From contig JAHDQN010000040.1 of assembly GCA_018433775.1 (NCBI GenBank), positions 20,587 through 84,586 of the forward strand: a stretch of DNA of 64,000 nucleotides. Reading direction: 5' to 3'. Positions 1 through 57,978 of this stretch are shown here, one piece after another (positions within the stretch are counted from its first letter, which is position 1; every line of letters starts with the position of its first letter). The notes beneath the pieces are model-generated. The model saw nothing but the letters and a program-made list of their open reading frames with translations. It made no database searches and was not told the DNA's origin. Position numbers and translations under genes: made by a program. Source of the DNA: Deltaproteobacteria bacterium. GTDB lineage: Bacteria > Desulfobacterota > Desulfomonilia > UBA1062.

Positions 1-440
1 GAAGTTGAATCCAAATGCTCATTGATGCAATCCCATGTAGATTGGCTAAATAAAGGATCTCTTTCAGTAAGGATCAAAAAACCTTGGCCATACTTAATAT
101 GCCATTCCTCATATGAAACCTTGGATATTTTTTTGTGTAGAGTGGTTATAAATGCAATAGCAGTTCTCTCATCTGGACTGAAAATTGGGTGTTCTTTTCT
201 TATATATGGCTTTTCGCCAGGAGTGACAAAGGACCGCTCTTCCTGGGCTTCTTCATAACTTCTATAAATGTCAGCATGTTCAATCCAAATAAGTTTATCA
301 CCATCTTTTGCTATTGCATCAGGGGGATCAGGTTTTTCGATGACAATAAAATTAGTTGTATTCTTTGAATTATACCAGGCAAGGAAGCTATTAATAACCG
401 CATCCTCGTGAGCTCGCTGTATTTGTTCTCTTGGCTTCAT
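1..440 (-). CDS. Hypothetical cassette protein, 5'-complete, 3' end beyond window
   Basis: I translated the minus strand from the ATG at 438-440 to position 1 and found no stop (146+ codons: MKPREQIQRAHEDAVINSFLAWYNSKNTTNFIVIEKPDPPDAIAKDGDKLIWIEHADIY...). It is absent from the ORF track because it is open-ended. It begins 8 nt after attC 448-507. I recognise no domain. Confidence 0.5.
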   Translation of the reverse strand, partial: MKPREQIQRAHEDAVINSFLAWYNSKNTTNFIVIEKPDPPDAIAKDGDKLIWIEHADIYRSYEEAQEERSFVTPGEKPYIRKEHPIFSPDERTAIAFITTLHKKISKVSYEEWHIKYGQGFLILTERDPLFSQSTWDCINEHLDST

Positions 441-447
441 CTTTTAT

Positions 448-507
448 TCCCAACGTGGGCATCAGCGGCGCGGCTCCGCCGCGTCCGCCTGGATGCCTTG
501 GTTGGAT
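448..507 (-). repeat. attC recombination site (cassette boundary)
   Basis: The plus strand reads TCCCAAC...GTTGGAT. The inner stem is AGCGGCGCGGC / GCCGCG(T)CCGC, flanked by GGCATC / GATGCC. The unpaired bases (T, C, G) are all on the 3' arm of the plus strand, as in an attC bottom strand. Confidence 0.7.
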
Positions 508-1208
508 GATCTCTTGCATGTTTGAGGGACAGGCAGAATAAATCCTAATAATGAACTCATAATCAAAACTGCTATCCAAAAGTATATTGACAGGTAGAAA
601 GACCTCATCCCCCATTTGCTTAACTCTCTAGATTTCAATAGAGCTTCTCTTTGTTCTAGTTCTTTGTTTGTGGGTATGTATAATTCAATATTACCACTCT
701 CTGTAATGTAATTTGATTGAACACCATCTTCATAGAACAAAATTCCCGCATAAAATTTGCTTATTTTTGATTTTGTATTAATTGAGTCATTTGTAGAATT
801 AATGCGTGATACGATGATATCACGAATTGTATCTGGAGTCCTGTGAGGCGCTATTTTTTTGAATGTTTGGTATCCAACGACACTCATAAATAAACAAGAT
901 ACGATTATAAAAACACCTACAGCTGAATATATAAGTCCCTTTAAGGTGTAGCCGCTCTTTCGAATATCTCGGATACCAACAATAATCATTGTTGCTACCG
1001 CTGTTGTTAGTGCAACATCGCGAAATACGCGGATAAGCCATTCAATGAGTGCAACTTCGTGCGAAGCACTAAAAGGATCAAAATCAATAAAAATTAGGTA
1101 GAAAAGGTCAACAAAAATATAAAATGCAAAACCTAAAGGGATGATCCATTCACTGATACTTGATGGCCATCGAAATATTTTACTTATTATTGACATACCT
1201 ATTTTCAT
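462..1208 (-). CDS. Hypothetical multi-pass membrane protein (cassette-encoded)
   Basis: 248-aa ORF. Hydrophobic segments include WIIPLGFAFYIFVDLFYLIFI, TAVATMIIVGI, LIYSAVGVFIIVSCLFMSVVG and a C-terminal FYLSIYFWIAVLIMSSLLGFIL. The ATG directly abuts attC 1207-1263, and the stop codon lies inside attC 448-507. Confidence 0.55.
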   Translation of the reverse strand: MKIGMSIISKIFRWPSSISEWIIPLGFAFYIFVDLFYLIFIDFDPFSASHEVALIEWLIRVFRDVALTTAVATMIIVGIRDIRKSGYTLKGLIYSAVGVFIIVSCLFMSVVGYQTFKKIAPHRTPDTIRDIIVSRINSTNDSINTKSKISKFYAGILFYEDGVQSNYITESGNIELYIPTNKELEQREALLKSRELSKWGMRSFYLSIYFWIAVLIMSSLLGFILPVPQTCKRSSNQGIQADAAEPRR

Positions 1209-1263
1209 CCAACGTACCGATCACCGGCGGCTAAAAGCCGTCCGGTGCATTGGCTGGTTGGGC
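1207..1263 (-). repeat. attC recombination site (cassette boundary)
   Basis: The plus strand reads ATCCAAC-GTACCGAT-CACCGGCGGC-TAAAA-GCCG(T)CCGGTG-CATTGGCTG-GTTGGGC. The 3' arm carries an extra T. The central part is nearly identical to attC 2996-3052. Confidence 0.8.
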
Positions 1264-1326
1264 CTTTCGTGCATATATGCAAGGTAATTAATTATAACAT
1301 GCGGGGTTTTATTGCTGTATATAGCT

Positions 1327-2028
1327 TCATTCCTTTTGACTTCTTCTGCTATCTCTTCTGGCTTTTGCAAGTTTAAGCCTTGCTGGCTCGGTATATATTC
1401 TTTCTAGTAGCATAATAGTGAAATCAAGTAAGTCTTCAGCGTCCTCTCGTTTCAGTGTCCCTGCATGTGCACCATCGTTACCATCTTCACGCACACAAGC
1501 AGATAAATCACGTAAGCTCTCTGGAAGTATGCATTGATCAAACATCCATGGTAATCGCAATCCTAAATCACGACGAATACGTTTATTTAAGCCATTTGCA
1601 TCTTCTTCGGGAAGCATTCCCCTTGTAACAATGTCAATACACAAACGAAACATTGTACCAGCAGCATTATTACATCCAACAGCTAGACATGTTGCACCTT
1701 CACGAAAGACCTTTTCCACATCATCTGGTATGTGTTCCGGAGGCTCTGTTGTGGCAGTATCTTTTAAGCTTATGAATCCCTCAATATCAACATAAGTGTT
1801 CACTGCGCCTTTGAAACTTAATAAACCTTTTTCATGTACAAGCTTATAATTACCGTGAACATTTTCTGACAGAACAAATATTGTTGCCCGATGACAATGG
1901 CGACATTTACAGAAGGATTCATACCATTGCTGCCAGTCATATTTTACATACGTAACATGGGCTGCAATAATGTCGAAGGTAATCTTTTGTGCATGACATC
2001 GTGGACAATTTGCTACTAACTCAGCCAT
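1327..2028 (-). CDS. Zinc-ribbon plus DUF4145-like protein (cassette-encoded)
   Basis: 233 aa. The N-terminus has CPRC...CRHC cysteine pairs. The C-terminal helical region resembles DUF4145 (AVGCNNAAGTMFRLCIDIV, DGNDGAHAG, DAEDLLDFTIMLLERIY). The start lies about 40 nt after the attC core, with an AAAGGAA RBS. Confidence 0.55.
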   Translation of the reverse strand: MAELVANCPRCHAQKITFDIIAAHVTYVKYDWQQWYESFCKCRHCHRATIFVLSENVHGNYKLVHEKGLLSFKGAVNTYVDIEGFISLKDTATTEPPEHIPDDVEKVFREGATCLAVGCNNAAGTMFRLCIDIVTRGMLPEEDANGLNKRIRRDLGLRLPWMFDQCILPESLRDLSACVREDGNDGAHAGTLKREDAEDLLDFTIMLLERIYTEPARLKLAKARRDSRRSQKE

Positions 2029-2070
2029 AAAATATTATTCCTTTCACATAAAAAACATTTGTGACTTGAT

Positions 2071-2127
2071 GCCCAACGTAAGGGTCAGCCGCGCGCGTAG
2101 CGCGTCGGCTGCAACCTATGGTTAGGC
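2071..2127 (-). repeat. attC recombination site (cassette boundary)
   Basis: The plus strand reads GCCCAAC...GTTAGGC, a perfect match to RYYYAAC / GTTRRRY. The stem is CAGCCG-CGCG [CGTAG] CGCG-(T)-CGGCTG, with an extra T on the 3' arm. Confidence 0.8.
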
Positions 2128-2130
2128 GAT

Positions 2131-2985
2131 TTAACTAATTGTTAAATTTACTAATTCCTTAAAATCGCTTTCTCTTATTATGCGAAGATACTGCCCCTTT
2201 TTAATCAGCGATTCTGCTTTTCTGTGTTTGGAGCTTTTGTCATGGCCTGCAAGTTTTTTTACATCTTGATCCCCAACTACCAAAATAGTTGTATCCTTCC
2301 TAACCCCGTTAGCTACTGTGCAACCTATTTTTGAAGCCATATCAGCTGCTTCTCGCCGTGGAATATCAAGAGCACCGGTGAAAACTAAGACCTCACCAAA
2401 GAGATATCCCTCTGGATTACCTTCTCTTGAAATGCTGCTTGAAGGATCGATTGGTTGTTCGACACGTCTTAGCCAACCTTGTAAATCGATGCCCGTCTTA
2501 GCAATTGCAGCTAAAAGAATATGTGCAGCAGCTTTTGCATCTTCAAGGGCGTCATGATGCGCAAATTGGTATCCTAAGTTATTGCATACATTTGCAAGGC
2601 CGTACCCACTCCATGCAAATTGTTCCCATGTCCTGCGTGTTACGCGAGCAGAATCTAGCCAAGTACATGAAGGATTGCGAAGGTCATATTTTAAGCAAGC
2701 TTGTTGAATAGCCACTCGATCGAAATGGGTATGACAAACAACAATTCTACCATCTAAGTAATTGTATAAACGACTTGCAGCATCTGGCAGAGTGGGAGAG
2801 CCTTCTACTGTGGATTCATCGATTCCATGTATAGAAATGTTCATCCAATCGAAAAAATCCTCTGGATCGATATATGTCTTCCACTCTTCTTGCAACAATC
2901 CATTTTTGAAGACTGCAAGTCCTATTTGGCAGATTGAAGACATATCAGCATTAGCAGTTTCAAAGTCCAATGCTATAAAGTCCAT
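2131..2985 (-). CDS. DEDDh (DnaQ/epsilon-like) 3'-5' exonuclease fused to a C-terminal BRCT domain (cassette-encoded)
   Basis: 284 aa. Exo I is ALDFETAN, Exo II is CHTHFDRVAI and Exo III is HHDALEDAKAAA. The BRCT-like tail is GEVLVFTGALDIPRREAADMASKIGCTVANGVRKDTTILVVGD. An AGGAGG RBS sits immediately after the attC core (GTTAGGCAGGAGGCATTATG). Confidence 0.8.
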   Translation of the reverse strand: MDFIALDFETANADMSSICQIGLAVFKNGLLQEEWKTYIDPEDFFDWMNISIHGIDESTVEGSPTLPDAASRLYNYLDGRIVVCHTHFDRVAIQQACLKYDLRNPSCTWLDSARVTRRTWEQFAWSGYGLANVCNNLGYQFAHHDALEDAKAAAHILLAAIAKTGIDLQGWLRRVEQPIDPSSSISREGNPEGYLFGEVLVFTGALDIPRREAADMASKIGCTVANGVRKDTTILVVGDQDVKKLAGHDKSSKHRKAESLIKKGQYLRIIRESDFKELVNLTIS

Positions 2986-2995
2986 AATGCCTCCT

Positions 2996-3052
2996 GCCTA
3001 ACGTGCAGATCACCGGCGGCTGAAAGCCGTCCGGTGCATTTGCGGGTTAGCC
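2996..3052 (-). repeat. attC recombination site (cassette boundary)
   Basis: The plus strand reads GCCTAAC-GTGCAGAT-CACCGGCGGC-TGAAA-GCCG(T)CCGGTG-CATTTGCGG-GTTAGCC. Confidence 0.8.
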
Positions 3053-3079
3053 AGCCTACCCATATAATTTTATCTGGCA

Positions 3080-3880
3080 TTACAGCGGAAGACAATAAAT
3101 TAGATCTGTATAGCATTTTTCAACCACATTTTTTGGAAAAGGTAAATGTTCGTAATCACTTCCAATTATCCCTTTATTCAAATTCATTTGGTTGTCACAA
3201 AGGATAATTATGTATTTACCAAGGGCTTTAGCATACGATGTCTCACTAAGAATCCACGAGGTGTCTCCGGGTGTAAAGATACAGATAAAAATATCTTGTG
3301 AATGTATTTTTTGGGCCACTTTATCTGGTATATTCTTTGTTTCATAACCACTTCCTTCTTTAACGTCGAATCCGAGACGTCTGAGAAAGGTGTTGAGTTT
3401 GCCTGAAACATCATTTCCGTATTCATCAAACCTATGTGCTAAAAAAATAGACTTCTTTAACCCATACTTTGATACTTTGGCTGAAACATCTTCGCCGGGA
3501 TTACTGGCTTGGAAAAATGATTTTACATGATCATGTATTGAGCTAATAATATCTAGATCATCTGATCTTACACATACTTCAAGACCTGACTTGCGAATAT
3601 TAATTATAGTTGAAAACCCAAGAGATGCATTTTTGCCCCAATAGTAATGTACATATATTGGCAAAGCATTGGGATAAGTTTCAAGCAAACGCATGAACTC
3701 CTGAAAATTTTCAGCGTGAAGTCTTCTGAATTCACCAATATGCAGACTTAAAGAATGTGAGTCTGATTTTGGTTCTTGTGGTTTATATTTATTGATCTTC
3801 AAGTATTCATCAAATTGCCTAAAGGATGATAGTATATCTAAATTACTTGGGTATACAGAATACTCTCTATCTTCTTGCAT
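3080..3880 (-). CDS. Protein with unknown N-terminal domain and C-terminal TIR-like (DUF1863/TIR_2-like) domain (first cassette)
   Basis: 266 aa. The C-terminal roughly 120 aa (KKSIFLAHRFDEYGNDVSGKLNTFLRRLGFDV...DIFICIFTPGDTSWILSETSYAKALGKYIIIL) follow the TIR-like pattern: a beta-strand, an acidic loop, then an S-W-x3-E motif. I recognise nothing in the N-terminal 140 aa. Confidence 0.5.
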   Translation of the reverse strand: MQEDREYSVYPSNLDILSSFRQFDEYLKINKYKPQEPKSDSHSLSLHIGEFRRLHAENFQEFMRLLETYPNALPIYVHYYWGKNASLGFSTIINIRKSGLEVCVRSDDLDIISSIHDHVKSFFQASNPGEDVSAKVSKYGLKKSIFLAHRFDEYGNDVSGKLNTFLRRLGFDVKEGSGYETKNIPDKVAQKIHSQDIFICIFTPGDTSWILSETSYAKALGKYIIILCDNQMNLNKGIIGSDYEHLPFPKNVVEKCYTDLIYCLPL

Positions 3881-3896
3881 AAATACTGCCCCCTAT

Positions 3897-3967
3897 GGCT
3901 AACAACTTCCTCTACTGCATAATTGCAGCAAAAGTTGCTATATAGCAACTTTTGCTGCAACATTATG
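3897..3967 (-). repeat. Terminal cassette core site plus atypical 38-bp perfect palindrome (array boundary; truncated attC or attI remnant?)
   Basis: GGCTAAC at 3897-3903 is GTTAGCC on the cassette strand, the same core as at 3046-3052. A perfect palindrome TTGCAGCAAAAGTTGCTATATAGCAACTTTTGCTGCAA spans 3923-3960 and extends 5 bp further after a 2-nt bulge. There is no matching GTTRRRY box on the right side. Confidence 0.45.
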
Positions 3968-4311
3968 AATTACGAATATACCATGCTCCTCTTTTCGGAA
4001 GACCTTTCTCCTGGGGGGAGAGCTCGTGAGGGCCGTGCAGGAATCAGGGCAGACTCCGTCAGTAGAAGGTGAACGTGAAGATAGAAAATGGTCTCCTCTC
4101 ATTCATTTCATGCATCGACAAGGTCCGGCCGCCATTCCTGGCGTCCGGGCAATAACCTGTGAATACGATATCATTTTTTCCGCGACAAATCCAGATGAAA
4201 GTGAAAATGCTCAAGCCGCACGGGACTGCACCGTTCATGGCCCTGCCGCTCTGTACGGGCGGTCGAGCGGGCTGAACAGACCCCGCCGGGGTTTCCGGAG
4301 GCGTTACAGCC

Positions 4312-5946
<1,635 letters not shown>

Positions 5947-6271: not shown

Positions 6272-9200
6272 TTATTGCCGTGCATACAGGTCCTGCAGCG
6301 ACGACACGCCGAAGCCGCCCGCCTGCAGGGACCTGACGGCCTCGAGGCTCGCCCGCGAGGCCGCGACGGTCGTGGCGTAGGGGACGCTGTAGCGGATGGC
6401 GCTGCGGCGAATGTGGTGCGCGTCCTGCGAGGGTTTTCTGCCGATGCTCGTGTTGATGATCAACTGGATCTCGCGGTTCTTGATGTGGTCGACCACGTTG
6501 GGCCGGCCCTCGCTCACCTTGAGCACCACCTCGGCGTCAACGCCGCTCGCCTGCAGGTGCCGCGCGGTGCCCCGGGTGGCGACGATGCGGAAGCCGAGCC
6601 CGGCAAAGCCCTTTGCCACTTCCGTGATCCGGGCCTTGTGCATGTCGTGGACGCTGACGAACACGGTCCCGGAGTCCGGAAGGCCCGAGCCGGCCGCGAT
6701 CTGCGACTTGGCGAAGGCGGCCCCGAACGAGAAGTCCACCCCCATAACCTCGCCCGTCGACTTCATCTCCGGGCCAAGCCCCACGTCCGCGTCGGGAAAG
6801 CGCTGGAACGGAAACACGGCCTCTTTCACCGAGACGTGGGCAGGCACGACCTGCTCGGTGAAACCGAGCTCTTCAAGCGTCCGGCCCAGCATGACCTTGG
6901 TGGCGATCCGGGCCAGGGGCCTGCCGATTGCCTTGCTCACGAAGGGCACGGTCCTCGACGCCCGGGGGTTCACCTCCAGCACGTACACCTCGCCGTCCTT
7001 GACGGCGTACTGGATGTTCATGAGCCCGACCACCCCGATCTCTTTGGCGATCAGCCGGGTCTGCTCCCTGATCGTCTCCCGTATCTTCTCCGGCAGGGTC
7101 GCGGGCGGCAGCACGCACGCGCTGTCTCCGGAGTGGATGCCCGCCTCCTCGATGTGCTCCATGATCCCGCCGATCACCGTGGTTTGGCCGTCGCAGACCG
7201 CGTCCACGTCGACCTCGACCGCGTCCTCCAGAAAGCGGTCGATGAGCACGGCGTTGCCCGGAAAGAGCTTGAACACGCCGGTGATGAAGGTCTTCAGGGC
7301 TTGAGCGTCGTAGATGATCTCCATGGAGCGGCCGCCCAGCACATACGAAGGCCTGACCAGCACCGGGAAGCCGATCCCATCGGCCGCGGCGAGGGCCTCG
7401 TCAACGGTGAAGGCGATGTCGCTCTGCGGCTGCCTGAGATCGAGCTTCTTCACGATCTCGTTGAACCGCTCCCGGTCCTCGGCCCGGTCGATGGCGTCGG
7501 GCTGGGTGCCCAGGATGGTCACGCCCTCGTTCCACAGGTCCCGGGCGAGGTTGAGCGGGGTCTGGCCCCCGAACTGCACGATCACGCCCTCCGGGCTCTC
7601 GGCCCTGATCACGTGCAGCACGTCCTCCAGGGTGAGCGGCTCGAAGTAGAGCTTGTCCGAGATGTCGTAGTCCGTGCTCACGGTCTCGGGGTTGGAGTTG
7701 ATCATGATGCTCTCATAGCCCATCTCGCGCAGCGCGAACGAGGCGTGCACGCAGCAGTAGTCGAATTCGATCCCCTGGCCGATCCGGTTGGGCCCGCCGC
7801 CGATGATCACCACCTTGGGCCGCCCGGACGGCCTTGTCTCGGTCTCGGTCTCGTAGGTGGAGTAGTAGTAGGGCGTATAGGCCTCGAATTCGGCGGCGCA
7901 GGTGTCCACGAGCTTGTACACCGGCACGATTCCCTCGCGGAAACGCAGCCCCCGCACCCCGTCTTCGCCCATGCCCCAGGCCTCGGCCAGGAAGCGGTCG
8001 GAAAAGCCCATCCGCTTGGCCTCTTCCAGCAGCTCTTTTGAGGGCTTGCTGTTTTTGAGCGTGCCCTCGAACTCCACCAGCTCGCCTATGTGATAAAGAA
8101 ACCAGGGGTCGATCCCGGTCATGGCGTGTATCTCGTCCATGCCCATCCCGCTCCTGAGCGCCTCTGCCAGCCAGAACAGCCGGGCCGAGTTGGGATAGGT
8201 GAGCCGCGAGACGATCTCCTTGCGGTCTGCGGCGGCGCCTGCCTCGACCGGGCTGTTCAGGCCGTACCTGCCGGTCTCGAGCGAGCGGAGTGCCTTGCCG
8301 AGCGCCTCCTTGAAGGTGCGGCCGATGGCCATGGTCTCGCCCACGGACTTCATCGAGGTGGTGAGCAGGTCAGGGGTCTCCGGAAACTTCTCGAAGGTCC
8401 AGCGGGGGATCTTGACCACGCAGTAGTCGATGGCCGGCTCGAACGAGGCACAGGTCTCGCGGGTGATGTCGTTGGGGATCTCGTCCAGGGTGTAGCCCAC
8501 GGCCAGCTTGGCAGCGATCTTGGCGATGGGGAAGCCCGTTGCCTTTGACGCCAGGGCCGACGAGCGCGACACCCGGGGGTTCATCTCGATCACCACGATG
8601 TCCCCGTTCTTCGGGTTGACCGCGAACTGGACGTTGGAGCCGCCCGTCTCAACGCCGATCTCGCGCATGACCGCGACCGCGGCGTTGCGCAGATCCTGGT
8701 ACTCCACGTCGGTCAGGGTCTGGGCCGGGGCCACGGTGATGGAGTCGCCCGTGTGCACGCCCATGGGGTCGAGGTTTTCGATGGAGCAGATGATCACCAC
8801 GTTGTCCGCCCGGTCGCGCATGACCTCGAGCTCGTACTCCTTCCATCCGATCACCGACTCCTCGAGCATGATCTCGGTGATCATGCTCGCGTCGAGCCCG
8901 GCCTTTGCCATGACCTCGAGTTCTTCGGGGTTGTAGGCGATCCCGCCGCCGATCCCGCCCAGGGTGAACGAGGGCCGGACGATGACGGGGAAGCCGATCC
9001 GGCGGGCGATGGCAAACACCTCGTCCATGTTCCGGGCAAACCCGCTCTCCGGGACGCGCAGGCCGATGTTTTCCATGGCATGCCTGAACTTCTCGCGGTC
9101 CTCGGCCTTGTGTATGACCTCGGGTGTGGCACCGATCATCTCTACGCCGTACCTGTCGAGCACCCCCATCTCGTGGACCTTTACCGACACGTTCAGGCCG

Positions 9201-9481
9201 GTCTGGCCGCCCAGGGTCGGGAGTATGGCGTCGGGACGCTCCAGCTCGATTATCCTGGCCACCACCTCGGGCGTTATGGGCTCGATGTAGGTCCTGTCAG
9301 CGAGCTCCGGATCGGTCATGATGGTGGCCGGGTTCGAGTTGATGAGCACGACCCGGCAGCCCTCTTCCTTCAGGGCCTTGCAGGCCTGGACGCCCGAGTA
9401 GTCGAACTCGCACGCCTGGGAGATGACAATGGGTCCTGACCCGATGATGAGTATATTCTTCAGATCATTTCGTCGCGGCAT
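6272..9481 (-). CDS. carB: Carbamoyl-phosphate synthase large subunit
   Basis: 1069 aa. The N-terminus is [30 protein letters not shown], with duplicated ATP-grasp halves and an MGS-like C-terminus. Confidence 0.97.
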
Positions 9482-9758: not shown

Positions 9759-10751
9759 TTATGCGCTCAGCTTCGACCCCGCGGGTGCCGGCACGTCGAC
9801 TTCCCTGATCCTGATGCCTCTGGCTTTGAGGGCCTGCCGGCCGGCCAGCAGGTCCCTGCCGGCGATCTTGTCGAGCACATAGATCAGGTTGCCGCCGCGC
9901 TCGGCGTATATCTGCCCGTACGAGATCGGGATCTCAGGGGAGGGGTCGTCGAGAATCGAGCGGGTGATCGGTTCGAGCTTGCGCTCGCCGTTGGCAAGGA
10001 GCATGACGGTCTTTGCCTTGTACACGAGCTCGGCCCCCATCGAGACGGCATACCGGGGAGAGTCTTTCTCGGTGGCGAAATGGCCGTCGGCCACCGCGTT
10101 GGCGACCGTGTTGCCGTCGAGCTTCACGAGCAGGACATTGCTTCCCTTAAAGGGGATGCCCGACTCATGGAAGGCCACGTGGCCCCTGCCGCCCACGCCG
10201 ATGACCTGCAGGTCGATGCCTCCGGCCTTGCGGATCTTGCGGGCATAGCCGTCCAGGATCTCTTTCCTGATCCACCCCAAATATGCGGAGTCCGGGTTGC
10301 TCCGGATGGCAACCGACTTCCCCTTGTCGGTCCCCCTCTCCTCCCAGTCCTGCGGGTTTGCCTTGAGCTCGGCCACGAGCTTTTTCTGCTCGATCAGCGC
10401 GCCGTAGGGCACGTTGGTCTCGATGAACTTGCCCTTGAGAAGGCTGAAGAACTCCTGAATCATAAAAAATGCATAGCTCTCGGGGTGCATGACGCGGAGC
10501 TGGGCGTTCTCGCCCGGCAGGCCCACGTACTCGTCCAGGTTGAAGCTCCGGCAGCGTTTCGAGTCGAACTCGCCCTGGTTCGCCGCCTGTGCGAGATGCT
10601 TGTAGAGCCCTGTGGGCGAGTTGCCCGTCGCAAGCCCCAGCACGGCCTCCTGCTTCTGTTTCAGCACCTGCTGGATTTTATCCTTGGCAATGTCCGCGGC
10701 AACCTCGCTCATCGAGGCAAAATCATCAGTTACGAAAATCTCGATTCCCAT
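9759..10751 (-). CDS. Glucosamine-6-phosphate deaminase/isomerase family protein (NagB-like, with insertion)
   Basis: 330 aa. Motifs are GLATGNSPTGLY and DLQVIGVGGRGHVAFHESG. An insertion of about 60 aa relative to classical NagB lies around residues 120-180. Confidence 0.75.
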   Translation of the reverse strand: MGIEIFVTDDFASMSEVAADIAKDKIQQVLKQKQEAVLGLATGNSPTGLYKHLAQAANQGEFDSKRCRSFNLDEYVGLPGENAQLRVMHPESYAFFMIQEFFSLLKGKFIETNVPYGALIEQKKLVAELKANPQDWEERGTDKGKSVAIRSNPDSAYLGWIRKEILDGYARKIRKAGGIDLQVIGVGGRGHVAFHESGIPFKGSNVLLVKLDGNTVANAVADGHFATEKDSPRYAVSMGAELVYKAKTVMLLANGERKLEPITRSILDDPSPEIPISYGQIYAERGGNLIYVLDKIAGRDLLAGRQALKARGIRIREVDVPAPAGSKLSA

Positions 10752-10794
10752 GGATCTCTCTCTCCTCTCTCGATCTTTCCTGATGTTCCGCGGA

Positions 10795-12165
10795 TTATGA
10801 GGCTGCGGCCTCGCTCATGCCGAGCACCTTTTCCACGAGTTCCGCCAACTGGGTGCAGTATTTCTCCGTGACGTCCACCGACGGGCCTTCTACCATGACC
10901 CGGCACATGTTCTGGGTCCCGGAGTAGCGGACCAGGACGCGCCCCTGGTCGCCGAGCTCGCTCTCGACCTGGCTGATCGCGTCTCTGAGCTCGGGCACTG
11001 TGGAGATGTCCGGCTTGGTCTTCACGTTGACATTGATGAGCTTCTGCGGGTAGATGTCCATGAGCTTCGCCAGCTCCGAGAGCGGCTTGCCGGTCCTGAC
11101 CATGGCGGCTACGAGCTGCATGGCCGTGAGAATGCCGTCGCCCGTGGTGTGGTGGTCGAGGAAGATGAGGTGCCCCGAGTCCTCGCCGCCGATGACCCCG
11201 CCCATTTTGAGCATGTCCTCGAGCACGTAGCGGTCGCCCACCTTTGCGGCGTGATGGCTGAAACCGTACTTTTTGCAGGCCACCCTCAGCCCCAGGTTGC
11301 TCATGACCGTGCTCACCAGGAGATCGTTCTTGAGCCTGCCCTCTTCCTTGAGTATCCGGGCGCAGATGAGCAGGATCTGGTCCCCGCTGATCTCCTGCCC
11401 CTTCTCGTCGACCGCGATGAGCCGGTCCCCGTCTCCGTCGAACGCCAGGCCCACCGCCGCGCCGGTTTCCAGGACCCGCTTCTTCAGGTCAGCGGTATGC
11501 TGCGAGCCGCACGCGTCGTTGATGTTCAGCCCGTTCGGCGAGTTGTGCAGCACCTCGACATCGGCGCCCAGCTCGGTGAAGGCATCGGGCGCGACCCGGT
11601 ACGTGGCGCCGTTGGCGGTGTCCATGACGATCTTCATCTCCTCCATGGAGAGGTCCCGCGGAAAGGTGTTTTTCAGGAACACCACATACCGGCCGTTCAC
11701 GTCTTCCATCCGCAACGCCCGGCCCATGTCCTTGGAAGGGGGCAGGTGCTTTGCCAGTTTGCTGTTCAGGATGAGGTCCTCGATGGTGTCTTCCTGCTCG
11801 TCCGAGAGCTTGAACCCGTTGCCGCCGAAGATTTTGATCCCGTTGTCCTCGTAGGGGTTGTGCGAGGCCGAGATCACGATGCCCGCGTCGGCCCGCATGC
11901 TGTTGGCGATAAAGGCGATCCCCGGCGTGGGAAGCACGCCGACCAGATAAGGGTTGCCGCCCATGGAGGTGATGCCGGCTTCCAGCGAGCTCTCGAGCAT
12001 ATAGCCCGAGATGCGGGTGTCCTTGCCGATGATGATCCGTGTGCGGTGATGCTCCTTCCTGAGGAGATACGTCACCGCCTGGCCCACCAGGAAGGCGATC
12101 TGCGCGTTCATGGGGTATTTGTTCGCCTCCCCGCGTATTCCGTCCGTACCGAATAGCTTGCCCAT
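10795..12165 (-). CDS. glmM: Phosphoglucosamine mutase
   Basis: MGKLFGTDGIRGEANKYPM at the N-terminus and the active-site motif SASHNPYEDNGIK. The ATG at 12165 is preceded by AAAGGAGGA. The track's 40-codon upstream extension is rejected. Confidence 0.93.
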   Translation of the reverse strand: MGKLFGTDGIRGEANKYPMNAQIAFLVGQAVTYLLRKEHHRTRIIIGKDTRISGYMLESSLEAGITSMGGNPYLVGVLPTPGIAFIANSMRADAGIVISASHNPYEDNGIKIFGGNGFKLSDEQEDTIEDLILNSKLAKHLPPSKDMGRALRMEDVNGRYVVFLKNTFPRDLSMEEMKIVMDTANGATYRVAPDAFTELGADVEVLHNSPNGLNINDACGSQHTADLKKRVLETGAAVGLAFDGDGDRLIAVDEKGQEISGDQILLICARILKEEGRLKNDLLVSTVMSNLGLRVACKKYGFSHHAAKVGDRYVLEDMLKMGGVIGGEDSGHLIFLDHHTTGDGILTAMQLVAAMVRTGKPLSELAKLMDIYPQKLINVNVKTKPDISTVPELRDAISQVESELGDQGRVLVRYSGTQNMCRVMVEGPSVDVTEKYCTQLAELVEKVLGMSEAAAS

Positions 12166-12212
12166 GTAAAATCCTCCTTTGATCGTGTGTTCAGCTGGAA
12201 ATAATTCTGCCC

Positions 12213-13436
12213 TTAAAACAACTGCAGGCCGGGCATGGCCTGGGAAACCGCCTTGGCGTGTGATGTAACGACGCTTTCCAGCCATGCCGTCCCTTGATCG
12301 GAAACATCCGCGGGCAGACCCTGGATGGTTTCGATGTAACCGTCCCGTCCTGCCTGCATCGCCCTGTTCAGCCCGCCCAGGAACTCATCTTTCAGCGTTT
12401 CCGCGTCTGAACCAGGGATTGTATCCATCTCAAACATCTCTTTGATTTTATCGCTATTTTTTGTGAACCCGTCCCCGAATTGGGGGGCGCGCTTGGCCAT
12501 TGCCTCGAGCCGCTTCAGGCGTTCCTTGCGGGCGAGCGAGAGCTTGTCGAGGAGGCCTGCGTGGATGAGGGGGCCGAACTCGACCGCGTCCAGGAAGGGC
12601 TTGCGCACGTGGACATACCACTCGCGCAGGGCCGCGAGGTTCGCCAGATAGAGGATGTTGTTCTCCACCACGCGCTTGAGGTTCGGGTACAGGGCCGGCT
12701 GATACTCCCTTACTCCGCCCGGGTGCGGCTCGACCGTGATCAGACAGTTGTCGTCCGGGCAGTCCTGCCTGAGCACCGAGCCCGCGGCCACGACGTTGCC
12801 GAACCCCATGCGGACCGGCCCAACGATCCCCCCCTGGCCTCCGAGGAAGATGGGCGGCCGGTTCAGCATCACGCCCCTGGGCACGTCGCCGAGCAGCGAG
12901 GGGGTCGTCTTGTCGCCGTCCGGGGTGAAGTTGAAGTGGATGTACGAGCTCCCCACCTCGCTGTGGTCCTTGCGGCTGGTTCCCCCGGCCATGAGGCAGT
13001 CGCAGAAGTTGATCAGGCTGCCCAGGGTCACGAAGGGGAAGAGTATGGTCTGCTTGAGCCCCACGCAGTGGGCACCGCCCGCCTCCTCCTCCAGGATCGA
13101 ACCCTCGCGGACATGGGCGCCCAGGCCCATGTTGGATCTGTCGAGGAACACCGACTTGCTGAAATAGCCGCCCTTGAGCTCCACGTCGCGGCCGATCTGG
13201 CAGTCCTCGATCGTGACCGGGCCTTCGCGGCCGATCTGCGCGCCCGATGAGATGACGGTCTTCTCGCCGTAGATCCTGCACCCGGGATAGATCCTGACGC
13301 CCTGCGCGGATATCCGCCCGATGTCGACCTCTTCCCCGATATCGAGGGTCAGGGGGTTGGGGAGATCGATCCCCTTCTCGAGCAACTGCACGATCTTCTC
13401 ATGGCATCGCGGCGTTATGTCCATCGGCACCTCCAT
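12213..13436 (-). CDS. Left-handed beta-helix (hexapeptide-repeat) protein, GlmU acetyltransferase-domain-like, with helical C-terminal extension
   Basis: Hexapeptide-type repeats run through IGRISAQGVRIYPGCRIYGEKTVISSGAQIGREGPVTIEDCQIGRDVELKG. The start is ATG 13436, or ATG 13424 with a GGAGGTG RBS. The track's upstream extension overlaps the preceding gene in another frame. Confidence 0.6.
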   Translation of the reverse strand: MEVPMDITPRCHEKIVQLLEKGIDLPNPLTLDIGEEVDIGRISAQGVRIYPGCRIYGEKTVISSGAQIGREGPVTIEDCQIGRDVELKGGYFSKSVFLDRSNMGLGAHVREGSILEEEAGGAHCVGLKQTILFPFVTLGSLINFCDCLMAGGTSRKDHSEVGSSYIHFNFTPDGDKTTPSLLGDVPRGVMLNRPPIFLGGQGGIVGPVRMGFGNVVAAGSVLRQDCPDDNCLITVEPHPGGVREYQPALYPNLKRVVENNILYLANLAALREWYVHVRKPFLDAVEFGPLIHAGLLDKLSLARKERLKRLEAMAKRAPQFGDGFTKNSDKIKEMFEMDTIPGSDAETLKDEFLGGLNRAMQAGRDGYIETIQGLPADVSDQGTAWLESVVTSHAKAVSQAMPGLQLF

Positions 13437-13498
13437 ATACAGGCCAAATGAACGCCCTTTGTCAAAGAAAAAAATCGGTTCATCGTAATCTCCTTTAC

Positions 13499-16400
13499 TC
13501 AGATTCTTGAAGGCCGGGATTCCCCGATCCGTTCGAATATCAAGCTCGTGATCGTCTCCACGTCCTCCCCGAGCAGCAGCCTCAGGGGCAGACGCTCGAG
13601 ATACGCGTCGTCCCAGGCGACATTGTATTCGTCGACAAGGTTCCTGAGGTCGTTGTACTTCTCGGCCAGGATCTCCTTCTTGCGTTCGACGTCCAGGTCC
13701 TCGCAATAGTCGACGTGGAGCAGGAGCAGGTGCTCCACGGCCCGCAGGGAGTTCAGGAGCGGGACGATCACGATGGAGGCGTGGTCAGATTTGCCCTCGC
13801 CGGCATAGACGTTGCCGGTGCGGACAATGGTCTTTTTGGTGCCCATGAGTGTCCCGGTCTCGTCGAACCGCGAGCGCATGCCCGCGGCGACACCATGTTT
13901 CCCGATTGTCCGGATGGTCGAGCCCTCGGTGGGCCTCCCCTCATCGTCGAGGTTGCCCACGGCATAGAGGGTGTAGCCGTTGATGCGGCTTATCGCATCC
14001 TGCAGGCGCTTGAGCACGATGCCGCCCCTTGCGGGGATGTTCTCGACCGTGAACGACAGGTCTTCGAGCGCATCGAAGATAACGCCCCGTGGGGCCTCCA
14101 CCCGCCTGCTCGTGCCCACGGTAACGGTCTTGGCCTGGTGCCGGATGGCGTCAACGGGCCGCGAGAGCTCGTCGATCGCCCTGCCCAGGGCGGAATCCAG
14201 CTCGTCCAGGGGCGAGGCGGTCACCCGGTGGGCGCCGAACTCGCTCCAGAAATCCTCGATGGGCAGCTTGCCCACCGCGTACTTCAGAAGCAGGGTGATG
14301 TCGGAAGCGGTTTCCACGTTCATTGACGTGAGCATGCCCGATCTCCTCCAGGAGTTGAACATCGCGGAAAAGTCGTCCACGCAACGGTGCAGGTCGCGGT
14401 CTTCGATGCTCTCGTAGATGGAAAGACCTTTCTTCTCCTGGCAGCGCATGATCTCGGACAGGCTCGACCTGAACGGTTTGAAGGCCCCCGCCTGCGCGTC
14501 GAGACTGCACGCGGCATAGTATCCCCAGATGTGCCCTGCCAGGGTGTTGAGGATCACCGAGAGCGGAAAGCCCGAGCGGGGCACGTGGATCACCGAGTCC
14601 GCTATCGCGTCGAAGCGCTTCTCGCCCTGGTCCGCGATGACCACCACGCTCGATGCATGGGCGTGGAAGATGGCCACGTCCTTGACCACGTCTTCGAGCA
14701 CGATGTCCGGGCTCCCGGCCGCGCACACCAGGATCAGGGGCTCGGACGAGAGATCGATGTGCTTCTTGTCCTCGATCACGTCCGAGGAGATGGTCTTGTA
14801 GCACAGCTCGCTGAGCTTGATCCGGATCTCGTCGGACGCGGTCTTGTTTGCGCCGCTTCCCACCACTGCCCAGTATTTCTTTTTTCTCACCAGGTCCCAT
14901 GCCGAGCTCCTGATCGCCTCGCGCGAGGCGATGACCTCCTGCATGAGCTTAGGCGACTGCTCGATCCGGGAAATCTCCCGGACGATCCTTTCGCGGGAGA
15001 GCGCGCCCATAAGCTGCGCCATGAACAGGGCGAGAATATAGCCCGCGGTGATCTGCGAGTAGAACGCCTTGGTCGATGCCACGGACATCTCGATGTCGCG
15101 GCCGTCGCTCGTGTAGAATACCCCGTCCACCTTTGTGGTGATGTCCGACTGCCTCCGGTTCACGATGGCGATCAGGTGCGCGCCCCGCTCCCTGGCCATG
15201 GTCACGGCCCGGTTGGTGTCCGTGGTGGTGCCCGACTGGGTGATGGCGATCACCAGGCAGTCCGTCATGTCTTCGTCGAGGCAGAACCCGCTCAGATCGG
15301 TGGCCTTACGCGCCAGGACCGAGATAGGCGTGCCCTTCAGGTAGATCGCGAGCGCCTCGGCCACGGCAGCGCCCGCAATGGCCGCAGTGCCCTGACCCAC
15401 CACGTAGATCCGTCTGATCACGCCCGAGACGAGCGCATCGCGCACCGCGGCAGGAACCACGGCCTCGTCCAGGTTGAAGGCCACCCTCCGGCCGCCTTCC
15501 ACCCGGTACTTTCCCCGGATGGTCTTCCGGATCGACTCCGGCGCGTCCAGGATCTCCTTAAGGAGAAAATGGGGGAAGGTCCCGCGGTCGATATCCCGGG
15601 TGGTGATCTCGGCGCGCCGGATATCGCCCTGCCCGAGCTCCAGGGGCCGGCCGTCGTAGTACATGGCCTCGATCCCTCCGAGCCCGCCCCCGCCGGCATT
15701 ATCCAGGATGAAGATCTGGCCCCGGGTGCACTCATCGCCCGGGACGCGCTCCCGCTCGCCGTCCATTTTGATGAATAACGGGGTCTCCTCCACCAGGCCG
15801 TAGACCTCGGAGGAGAAGACATACTGGTTCTCGCAGATGCCCACATAGATGGTCTGTCCGCTTCCCTTTACACCAAGAAATACCCTGCCTGGCTCCAGGT
15901 TGCTCTCCATGGCGATGGCGTGCGAGCCCTCGAAGTCGTTCACGGCCCTCCTGAATGCCTCCTTGAGGTCGTGGCCCTGGCAGAGGTACCGCTCGATCAC
16001 GAGCGGGATGATCTTGGTATCGGTGGTCACGCGCGGGTCGATCCGGCACCCTATAGCCTGCAGGCCTTCCTTGAGCGGGAGATGGTTGTCGATGTCGCCG
16101 TTGAGCACGACATTGATGGCCCAGGTGCCGCTCCCGTAGAAGGGATAATGTTTCCTCGCCGTCTGGAAGTCCCACTGCTCGTTCGATTCCCCGTCCATGG
16201 CGAAGTTGTTGACCGGATGGCAGTTCGTCTCGTTGATGGCGCCCACCGAGGCCCAGCGCGTATGCGCCAGGTACATCTGCGAGTTTGGTGCATGATCCAT
16301 CACCAGACGAAGGATGGGGTCTGCGCTTATGGACGCTCTGAGCGATCTCGTGTTGTCTCCCAGGTCTCCGGTGACGAGCGCGGTCTTGTAGGTGAAAATC

Positions 16401-40073: not shown

Positions 40074-40766
40074 GAGCAACCTTCCTTTCCCGATAAAAGG
40101 CTTTTATGTCATATTGTATGTTTATATTATTCATTCATTCTTCCTGGGTATATCGGCGACACAGTGCTGTAAATTTAATCGCATACCTGCCGGCATTGCA
40201 AAGGTTTACGACCGGTAACTTTTAGGGAGTAAGAAAAGAAGGAACCCTGCCCTGGAAGACAGGAAAAGAAACCGGATGTTCGGAAAAGCCGACTCCTTAA
40301 AAACCACCAAACCGAAAGATTCACAAGAATGAACACCATCCGCCCTCAACGGGAAATCAGTGCACGGGGAGGTTCGTGTATGTATGATTTCTTATAGAGA
40401 TATGAATTCTGTATCTCGCGATCTCAGGTTGAGATAGCCAGTTGATATATGCAATGTAGGCTAAGCCTTGTTATCCTCACACGATATATGAACTCTTCAA
40501 AAGACCTGTTTAATGGGAAAGGCTCTCTGCGGTGCCAGGAGAAATGATTGGGACTAATAGTGTAGTTGTAAAATCACCGACGATCCAAGTTTACCTATCC
40601 TCTGTTCGAGCTATACTGATCATTCACTTTTTTTAGGCAAGGGGCGTAATAATTATATTGATGATGGCTACCGATACTATCGGCAGATGACGCTTCGGCG
40701 TGTCACGATTCATTCCAGGCGTTAATTGCCTGGGTAAAGGCAACGTCCAGAGGAGGAGTAGCGATC

Positions 40767-57706: not shown

Positions 57707-57978
57707 TGTTTACCTCCTGTTGTTGGATTGTATCTTTCCTTCTTCGGCAATTGGGTTGAGAAACTTTCGTTATTTTACGCAATGAAATATTAATTTTAGA
57801 TTTTGTATTATTCCGGGCCTGAGGTTCACCGGCTGATGCGGGCGCTATGCCCGGCACGACAGTATGTCCGGTATGACGAAAAGGAACGAATGAGCGCATG
57901 ACAGTGGATACGAAATCATGCTTGTGATACAAGACAACCGGATTTATCAACTGACAGACAGGGGTTCTTGAGGAAGGT

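Follow-up and report, generated by a model that had tools for sequence, protein, structure and literature searches.

Integron cassette arrays without an integrase are known as attC-site clusters that lack an integron integrase (CALINs), and are recognized by at least two attC recombination sites that share a strand and are spaced by less than 4 kb, with no integron integrase within 4 kb of the cluster (10 kb in a stricter test) (PMC4889954; IntegronFinder 2, PMC9024848). Three routes to such arrays have been recorded: loss of the integrase gene intI, its separation from the array by rearrangement, and integrase-mediated insertion of cassettes at 5'-GWT-3' sites in the genome (PMC4889954; 10.1101/2022.09.11.507474). 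Here, we analyzed a stretch of 64,000 nucleotides (the window) of contig JAHDQN010000040.1, from assembly GCA_018433775.1 of a Deltaproteobacteria bacterium. Positions 1–3902 very probably form the promoter-proximal end of an integron cassette array on the minus strand, with five single-gene, promoterless cassettes (A–E) and no integrase. On this reading, the array is a CALIN, an already known kind of element, here in an uncultured Desulfomonilia-like bacterium.

The locus shares most features with other CALINs. Its four visible attCs are co-oriented on one strand and their starts span approximately 2.5 kb (448 to 2996), no integrase is found nearby on the right side, no intI pseudogene can be recognized, the cassettes are mostly of unknown function and the visible size is small, near the CALIN average of approximately 6 attCs. 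It differs in that one end is visible, making four attCs a minimum count, and in that the attI-proximal end is kept, with a non-attC leader carrying attI-like motifs that lies outside the CALIN definition. Sedentary integrons, such as the Vibrio superintegron and the Xanthomonas integrons that have co-evolved with their genus (10.1101/2025.06.18.660453), are similar in having a chromosomal array beside housekeeping genes, attC bottom strands that apparently lie on the leading-strand template, at least some near-identical attCs (here one pair, at 90%) and defence-type cassettes, with PD-T7-4 among the commonest defence systems (10.1101/2024.07.02.601686). Unlike in sedentary integrons, neither an integrase nor a Pc promoter was detected here, the attCs are heterogeneous (61–77% pairwise identity apart from the one pair), and four attCs are visible where more than 10 (10.1101/2024.07.02.601686) or more than 19 (PMC4889954) are required, in arrays of closely similar sites that a species conserves.

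The attCs are imperfect palindromes of 57–60 bp, at 448–507 (attC 1, 60 bp), 1207–1263 (attC 2), 2071–2127 (attC 3) and 2996–3052 (attC 4; the last three 57 bp each), exactly where a first-pass annotation, made from the sequence by a model, had placed them. The near-identical pair is attC 2 and attC 4. Their lengths fall within the 57–141 bp of attC sites, in which it is the structure and not the sequence that is conserved. When folded as single-stranded DNA, each site forms a single hairpin of –18 to –22 kcal/mol, with z-scores of –3.0 to –5.6 relative to shuffled sequences. The four copies have a common structure of 21 pairs, of which 93% are paired over all copies and 9 show compensatory changes on both sides. 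Column shuffles reached the observed values in 0 of 500 cases on four of the five measures used, and in 1 of 500 on the fifth, and pairing falls to 26–44% when the four-site alignment is slid out of register.

On the plus strand, the 5' boxes of attC 1 to attC 4 read TCCCAAC, ATCCAAC, GCCCAAC and GCCTAAC, and the 3' boxes GTTGGAT, GTTGGGC, GTTAGGC and GTTAGCC. The RYYYAAC and GTTRRRY flanks that the first-pass annotation described are thus exact in six of the eight boxes, with TCCCAAC and GTTAGCC one base off each. In the plus-strand hairpin, the R and L boxes are paired, each arm has an unpaired spacer of three bases, and two extrahelical bases stand opposite the arm with AAC. One is a T on the 3' arm, bulged in all four sites (T484, T1241, T2105, and T3030); the other lies six pairs further out and is a C in three sites and a G in attC 1. 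This layout agrees with the rules for attC extrahelical bases, which on the bottom strand lie opposite the AAC arm, with the conserved T as the distal one and six pairs from first to last (Nivina et al., PMC5027507). As AAC is located on the 5' arm and the bulges on the 3' arm of the plus strand, the plus strand is the bottom strand, and the top strand of the cassettes is therefore the minus strand, on which all five open reading frames (ORFs) are encoded. The same argument had been made in the first-pass annotation from the boxes and the unpaired T, and it is correct.

We scored the sites with two covariance models. The model R1 was built from the four window sites, and four class 1 integrons (52 kb) served as its test DNA; the model R2 was built only from the class 1 attCs matched by R1, as a stand-in for the attC model of IntegronFinder. 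R1 gives the sites 65–80 bits on the plus strand (65, 79, 79.7, and 77 bits for attC 1 to attC 4) vs. 13–27 on the minus strand (13 for attC 1), and with all filters off it has no further match anywhere in the window. Its three best matches in the class 1 DNA are genuine attCs on the correct strand, namely those of dfrA14 (expectation value, E, 6e-6) and aac(6')-Ib4 (aacA4; E 1.7e-4), together with the final attC ahead of qacEdelta1 (E 2.6e-4). Conversely, R2 retrieves from the 64 kb exactly the four window sites, on the plus strand and at 32–54 bits (E 7e-6, 1.7e-11, 1.3e-6, and 1.8e-8 for attC 1 to attC 4), with at most 21.5 bits on the minus strand and, reverse-strand shadows aside, nothing else below an E of approximately 0.7. 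The bare box pattern YYYAAC-N40-50-GTTRR is not enriched over shuffled sequences (7 observed vs. 6.4 expected), although all real matches to it are the four sites; the valid test is that by the covariance models. Folds, covariation and recognition in both directions bear out the first-pass assignment: the four palindromes are attC sites, and attC-type models, albeit proxies, score them far above background.

Closely comparable to the sites are the short attCs of mobile class 1 integrons (dfrA14, aacA4, and aadA-type; 57–80 bp), which have the same kind of box sequences, bulge geometry, six-pair spacing and polarity with respect to the gene. The dfrA14 attC has the series TAACGT…ATCA…GCG…CGTC…TGCAT…GTTA in common with the window sites. 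They differ in the first extrahelical base (C rather than G in three of the four window sites) and in the unpaired central spacer, which is 3 nt per arm here and usually 5–6 nt, and the window cassettes carry no resistance genes.

If the crossover in each minus-strand GTTRRRY is taken to fall after the G and before the TT, the array resolves into five units, all on that strand. Cassette A, the first, occupies 3002–3902 (901 bp; ORF 3080–3880, 266 aa), followed by cassette B at 2077–3001 (925 bp; ORF 2131–2985, 284 aa), cassette C at 1213–2076 (864 bp; ORF 1327–2028, 233 aa) and cassette D at 454–1212 (759 bp; ORF 462–1196, 244 aa by the gene caller's start, which is the form on record). Cassette D includes attC 1, and the stop codon of its ORF lies inside this site. 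Cassette E (1–453; ORF 1–440) runs off the left edge, with 146 aa of its 191-aa product (P0001) inside the window. Successive sites are 759, 864, and 925 bp apart, and each interval holds one minus-strand ORF of 233–284 aa in the ORF list, next to the truncated fifth. The promoter scan found no excess of promoter-like sites in the cassette units.

The array is AT-rich, with a [G + C] content of 38.8% for positions 1–3967 vs. 61.0% for the remaining 60 kb and a step at approximately 3980. Upstream of cassette A follow an AT-rich, non-attC leader (3903–3980, minus strand), a spacer of mixed [G + C] content (3981–4311) in which no coding capacity, intI remnant, promoter or terminator was detected, an intact pyrG gene for CTP synthase (4312–5937, minus strand, 541 aa) and carB, encoding the carbamoyl-phosphate synthase large subunit (6272–9481, minus strand). 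The pyrG stop (4312) is 409 bp from the start of the first cassette (3902), and both genes are co-oriented with the cassettes. The overall layout read by the first-pass annotation, with one ORF per attC, an AT-rich array that abuts GC-rich core genes at 3.9–4.0 kb, co-orientation with pyrG-carB, approximately 400 bp of non-coding DNA before the pyrG stop and continuation of the array past the left edge, holds in every part.

Comparison with other loci indicates that these units are cassettes: each consists of one promoterless ORF and an attC, bounded at G|TT, and homologues of two of them, E and A, are found in other arrays. A homologue of cassette E with 90% amino acid identity is located on an unrelated contig (L104). 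There, nucleotide similarity sets in exactly at TTGGGAAT, which directly follows the crossover G, and everything upstream is wholly different in sequence. Similarly, a 74% homologue of cassette A is bounded by attCs in an array of a metagenome-assembled genome (MAG) of the Desulfobacterales (L108); the complete attC that precedes it ends in GTTAGCC, and similarity starts at GTTAGCCA, with TT after the crossover G. The cassette homologues come from the same phylum, in MAGs of Desulfobacterales and Desulfobaccales. A scan of metagenomes with a degenerate site pattern returned 11 contigs, several of them with co-oriented site pairs 0.8–1.5 kb apart and one with an array of BrnT/BrnA, PemK, and HigA-type toxin-antitoxin cassettes, and an attC pattern search of viral contigs gave no match.

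These other loci show features of their own. On L104, degenerate attC-like sites at 708–770 and approximately 1945–2030 end in GTTATGCC (R2 E 0.03 for the first) and represent a different subtype from the window attCs. In L108, inverted copies of a GC-rich hairpin (GGGGAGGGGCTTGTCCCCTCCC; 8986–9010 and 11672–11696) bracket a small array without integrase that contains DUF4160/DUF2442, the cassette A homologue and a 164-aa ORF. The toxin-antitoxin array is that of metagenome contig L092 (9000–13582), whose host DNA of approximately 73% [G + C] ends in an array of 58% [G + C] with window-type attCs; its cassettes encode BrnT/BrnA, PemK, and HigA-like/Gp49 proteins, and the available 13.6 kb contains no integrase. 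On L099, a 75% homologue of cassette E is part of a run of small co-oriented genes (9931–15845) that ends at a Phage_integrase-family gene, and no attC-like site occurs in this run. The cassette E homologues on L099–L103 all lie outside attC arrays, and the E family is therefore not confined to integrons.

From the attC polarity, attI and intI are expected to the right of cassette A. That side is occupied by pyrG, with no adjacent intI as in a complete integron, and no IntI/Xer-like gene is present in the 60 kb on the attI-proximal side. A tblastn search with IntI1 (a query 100% identical to the annotated intI1 in a plasmid search) at E ≤ 10 had no match in the leader or the spacer and only noise elsewhere in the window, and tblastx and blastn against all compared loci likewise gave no intI remnant in leader or spacer. 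As a sensitivity control, this IntI1 query does pick up the Xer-type recombinases of other loci (1e-18 to 1e-29). The absence of an integrase on the right, already noted in the first-pass annotation, thus stands over 60 kb with positive controls. The array in L108 also has no integrase within 10 kb on either side; L104, with just 2.3 kb, is too short to judge.

The leader, approximately 80 bp in length, is joined to the first cassette at G|TTAGCC (3903|3902), the canonical G|TT crossover. From the crossover G at 3903 it continues with the motif CTGCAATTATGCAGTAGAGGAAGTT (3904–3928) and with ATGTTGCAGCA (3953–3963), which resembles DR2 of attI1. It also contains a perfect palindrome of 38 bp (3923–3960, TTGCAGCAAAAGTTGCTAT|ATAGCAACTTTTGCTGCAA) that folds at –23 kcal/mol (z-score –8.4) and is not followed by a T run. 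We considered the leader as a fifth attC and rejected this, as it scores approximately 13 bits with both R1 and R2 and has no R'' box. The promoter scan found no promoter-like site on the minus strand between 4311 and 3880, the terminator scan no terminator-like site between pyrG and cassette A, and searches for Rfam families, tRNAs, promoters, and terminators over the region and the whole window were empty.

Two resemblances of the leader deserve mention. The 25 bases before the junction match the leader of L104 at 20 of 25 equivalent positions, and the motif ATGTT(N0-3)CAGCA, present once in both strands of the window (128 kb), in the leader, is met again in two places, the L108 array's leader and the integrase-binding repeat DR2 of attI1. 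Three matches to the leader motif were also found in viral contigs; none has an attC nearby and we regard them as chance matches. The resemblances to L104, L108, and attI1 are a lead toward an attI remnant, not a demonstration of one; that the leader is such a remnant appears about as probable as secondary-site insertion.

We propose that each of the cassettes A–E ends in its own attC, and that the plus strand of each attC, when single-stranded, folds into the hairpin recognized by integron integrases. The leader stands where attI would be expected, and is followed by 330 bp of non-coding DNA and pyrG-carB, without an integrase gene. Such an array could be rearranged only with integrase supplied from elsewhere, and transcription of its genes would have to come from outside, with read-through from pyrG as the simplest source and, given the co-orientation, a plausible one. 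The first-pass annotation had called the locus a CALIN or a decayed sedentary integron; it chose the right class, an integrase-less array, and the evidence fits both terms alike. Insertion at a secondary site would be a third origin, beyond the two that it named. A G|TT junction is compatible with each of the three recorded routes, and the leader motifs lean toward a conserved attI-like site; integrase loss and secondary-site insertion are both candidate origins.

Among the alternatives, secondary-site insertion is a serious possibility, though we think it somewhat improbable. An integrase encoded elsewhere, or on a transient element, would have put a circle of one or several cassettes into a 5'-GWT-3' site (attG) after pyrG; the leader would then be host DNA and not attI, and the locus would still be a CALIN. 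The G|TT junction is as expected for such an event, as is the lack of an intI pseudogene nearby, which holds for 95% of CALINs (PMC4889954), and this genome has long AT-rich intergenic stretches elsewhere. Integrases insert cassettes efficiently at GWT sites in genomes, and small CALINs have been suggested to arise in this way (Loot et al., 10.1101/2022.09.11.507474). Cassettes inserted at attG, as in single attC sites lacking integron integrases (SALINs) and small CALINs, resemble those of the window in being joined to non-att DNA at G|WT, in having no integrase in cis and in depending on a neighboring host promoter for expression. They differ from it in size, since five or more cassettes are large for such an insertion, and in the leader: the 20 of 25 matches with the unrelated L104 and the single occurrence of ATGTT(N0-3)CAGCA in 128 kb of searched strands, shared with the leader of another array and with attI1 DR2, suggest a conserved site over random host DNA. 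It is unlikely that the array belongs to a complete integron with its integrase past the left edge, cut off from the attI-proximal end through inversion or some other rearrangement. The source contig (116,865 bp) does exceed the window, the array runs off the left edge, and approximately half of CALINs are found in genomes that encode IntI somewhere (PMC4889954). However, attC polarity places attI and intI on the right, where pyrG stands, none was found within the 60 kb on that side, and the similar arrays of L108 and L092 also have no integrase within the available DNA.

We also considered an assembly chimera, in which the AT-rich array stems from a different organism and was fused with a core contig of Desulfomonilia at or near the leader palindrome, and judge this very unlikely. 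It would account for the abrupt [G + C] jump from 39% to 61% at approximately 3980 and for the perfect palindrome of 38 bp at the join. Independent support for the array comes from Logan unitigs of SRR13787005 (L081, L097, and L098), which are 100% identical to the window over 467–3951, including the sequence of cassette B on L081. These unitigs break inside attCs and inside the leader palindrome, where L097 ends at 3951; as a de Bruijn graph is expected to break at a perfect palindrome, this end says little about the join. Against a chimera, the attCs have a [G + C] content of 61–70% that resembles host DNA, arrays of lower [G + C] content than their flanks also occur in L092 (58% vs. 73%) and L108 (37% vs. 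43%), and the cassette homologues come from the same phylum, as mentioned above. Inside attC 3 and attC 4 the unitigs overlap by 26 bases, which suggests that further copies of these attC cores in the sample break the assembly graph. Finally, the palindromes could in principle be generic repetitive extragenic palindromic (REP)-like elements or transcription terminators, given that they are GC-rich hairpins after ORFs; this explanation is refuted and retains next to no probability. Neither model detects a further copy across the other 60 kb of the window (E ≤ 1, filters off), so the single scattered copies by which REP elements, the alternative named in the first-pass annotation, or bacterial interspersed mosaic elements (BIMEs) would be known do not occur there. 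In addition, no site is followed by a T run or flagged by the terminator scan, the sites and true attCs cross-recognize each other, and cassette homology ends precisely at G|TT.

Several points weigh against the reading of the locus as an integrase-less cassette array. In three of the four sites the first extrahelical base is not the usual G. The attC scores come from our own proxy models; R1 guided the alignment for R2, and of the four sites on which R2 was trained one is uncertain (E 0.29). The array–core join adjoins a perfect palindrome and is carried by the source assembly alone. The attI-like motifs of the leader are short and were defined after the sequences were seen. The integrase search covers the right side (60 kb) of the window, and the array runs past the left edge.

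The genes next to the array place the host. At 90% identity, pyrG and carB fall into clusters whose names derive from MAGs of Desulfomonilia and of 'Deltaproteobacteria bacterium ADurb.Bin' and from metagenomes of anaerobic digesters. Relatives with a pyrG more than 90% identical are on record, for instance with HOS26981.1 or MGB4111268.1. Among the matches listed in the genome collection, the closest species representative is 76% identical (L001, 44% [G + C]); on that contig pyrG is directly followed by other genes, none of which has a homologue in the window. GC skew in the core is negative on the plus strand, and between 4 and 33 kb nearly every long ORF is read from the minus strand. By these two features, the leading-strand template probably contains the attC bottom strands, an orientation that limits excision and has been described for 25 of 30 sedentary integrons (PMC5371416). 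Elsewhere in the window, a non-coding gap of approximately 690 bp separates core genes at 40080–40766, in a 40–41 kb segment of 48% [G + C], and contains no Rfam family, tRNA or attC-like site, and an AT-rich intergenic stretch is located at 57708–57970, between a minus-strand lipoprotein-like ORF and a small plus-strand DnaJ-like ORF.

The cassette products are diverse. Cassette B encodes a DnaQ/DEDDh 3'-5' exonuclease with a BRCT domain (RNase_T 2e-15, BRCT 7e-5; PDC-S48 2e-28), and cassette C a DUF4145 protein (5e-6) that matches the single-gene defence system PD-T7-4 (1.4e-8), reported among the most frequent defence systems of chromosomal integrons (10.1101/2024.07.02.601686). The product of cassette A belongs to a widespread family of 266 aa. 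In its predicted structure (mean predicted local distance difference test score, pLDDT, 87), the C-terminal domain resembles the TIR domains of SARM1/TIR-1 and the nucleotide N-glycosidases DNPH1, BcmB, and MilB, and weak TIR matches by sequence agree; by this model, it looks like a TIR or N-deoxyribosyltransferase-like domain. The product of cassette D has the look of a membrane protein by eye, and family searches gave no assignment for the products of cassettes D and E. Judging from these similarities, the cassettes look like compact defence or nucleic-acid-targeting genes, and a role in defence may be supposed. Such contents fit a picture that has emerged recently, in which chromosomal cassette arrays serve as reservoirs of anti-phage genes.

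Nothing in these results overturns the current understanding of integrons. What the locus contributes is a well-documented array of cassettes in a Desulfomonilia-like anaerobe that has not been cultured, with attCs close enough to those of class 1 integrons for covariance models of the one to recognize the other. With its attI-proximal junction preserved and no integrase there, it offers a concrete example for the question of CALIN origin, by integrase loss or by secondary-site insertion, and the leader supplies a short candidate attI sequence. It is conceivable, although we hold it to be rather unlikely, that the leader (3903–3980) acts behind the pyrG-carB operon as a functional 'orphan' attI, which, without an integrase or a promoter of its own, would capture cassettes by means of an integrase encoded elsewhere and borrow the transcription of a housekeeping operon. 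If this were true, the design would recur in the Desulfobacterota, where the L104 leader shares 20 of 25 bases with that of the window and the L108 leader, also without an integrase, carries the attI1-DR2-like motif.

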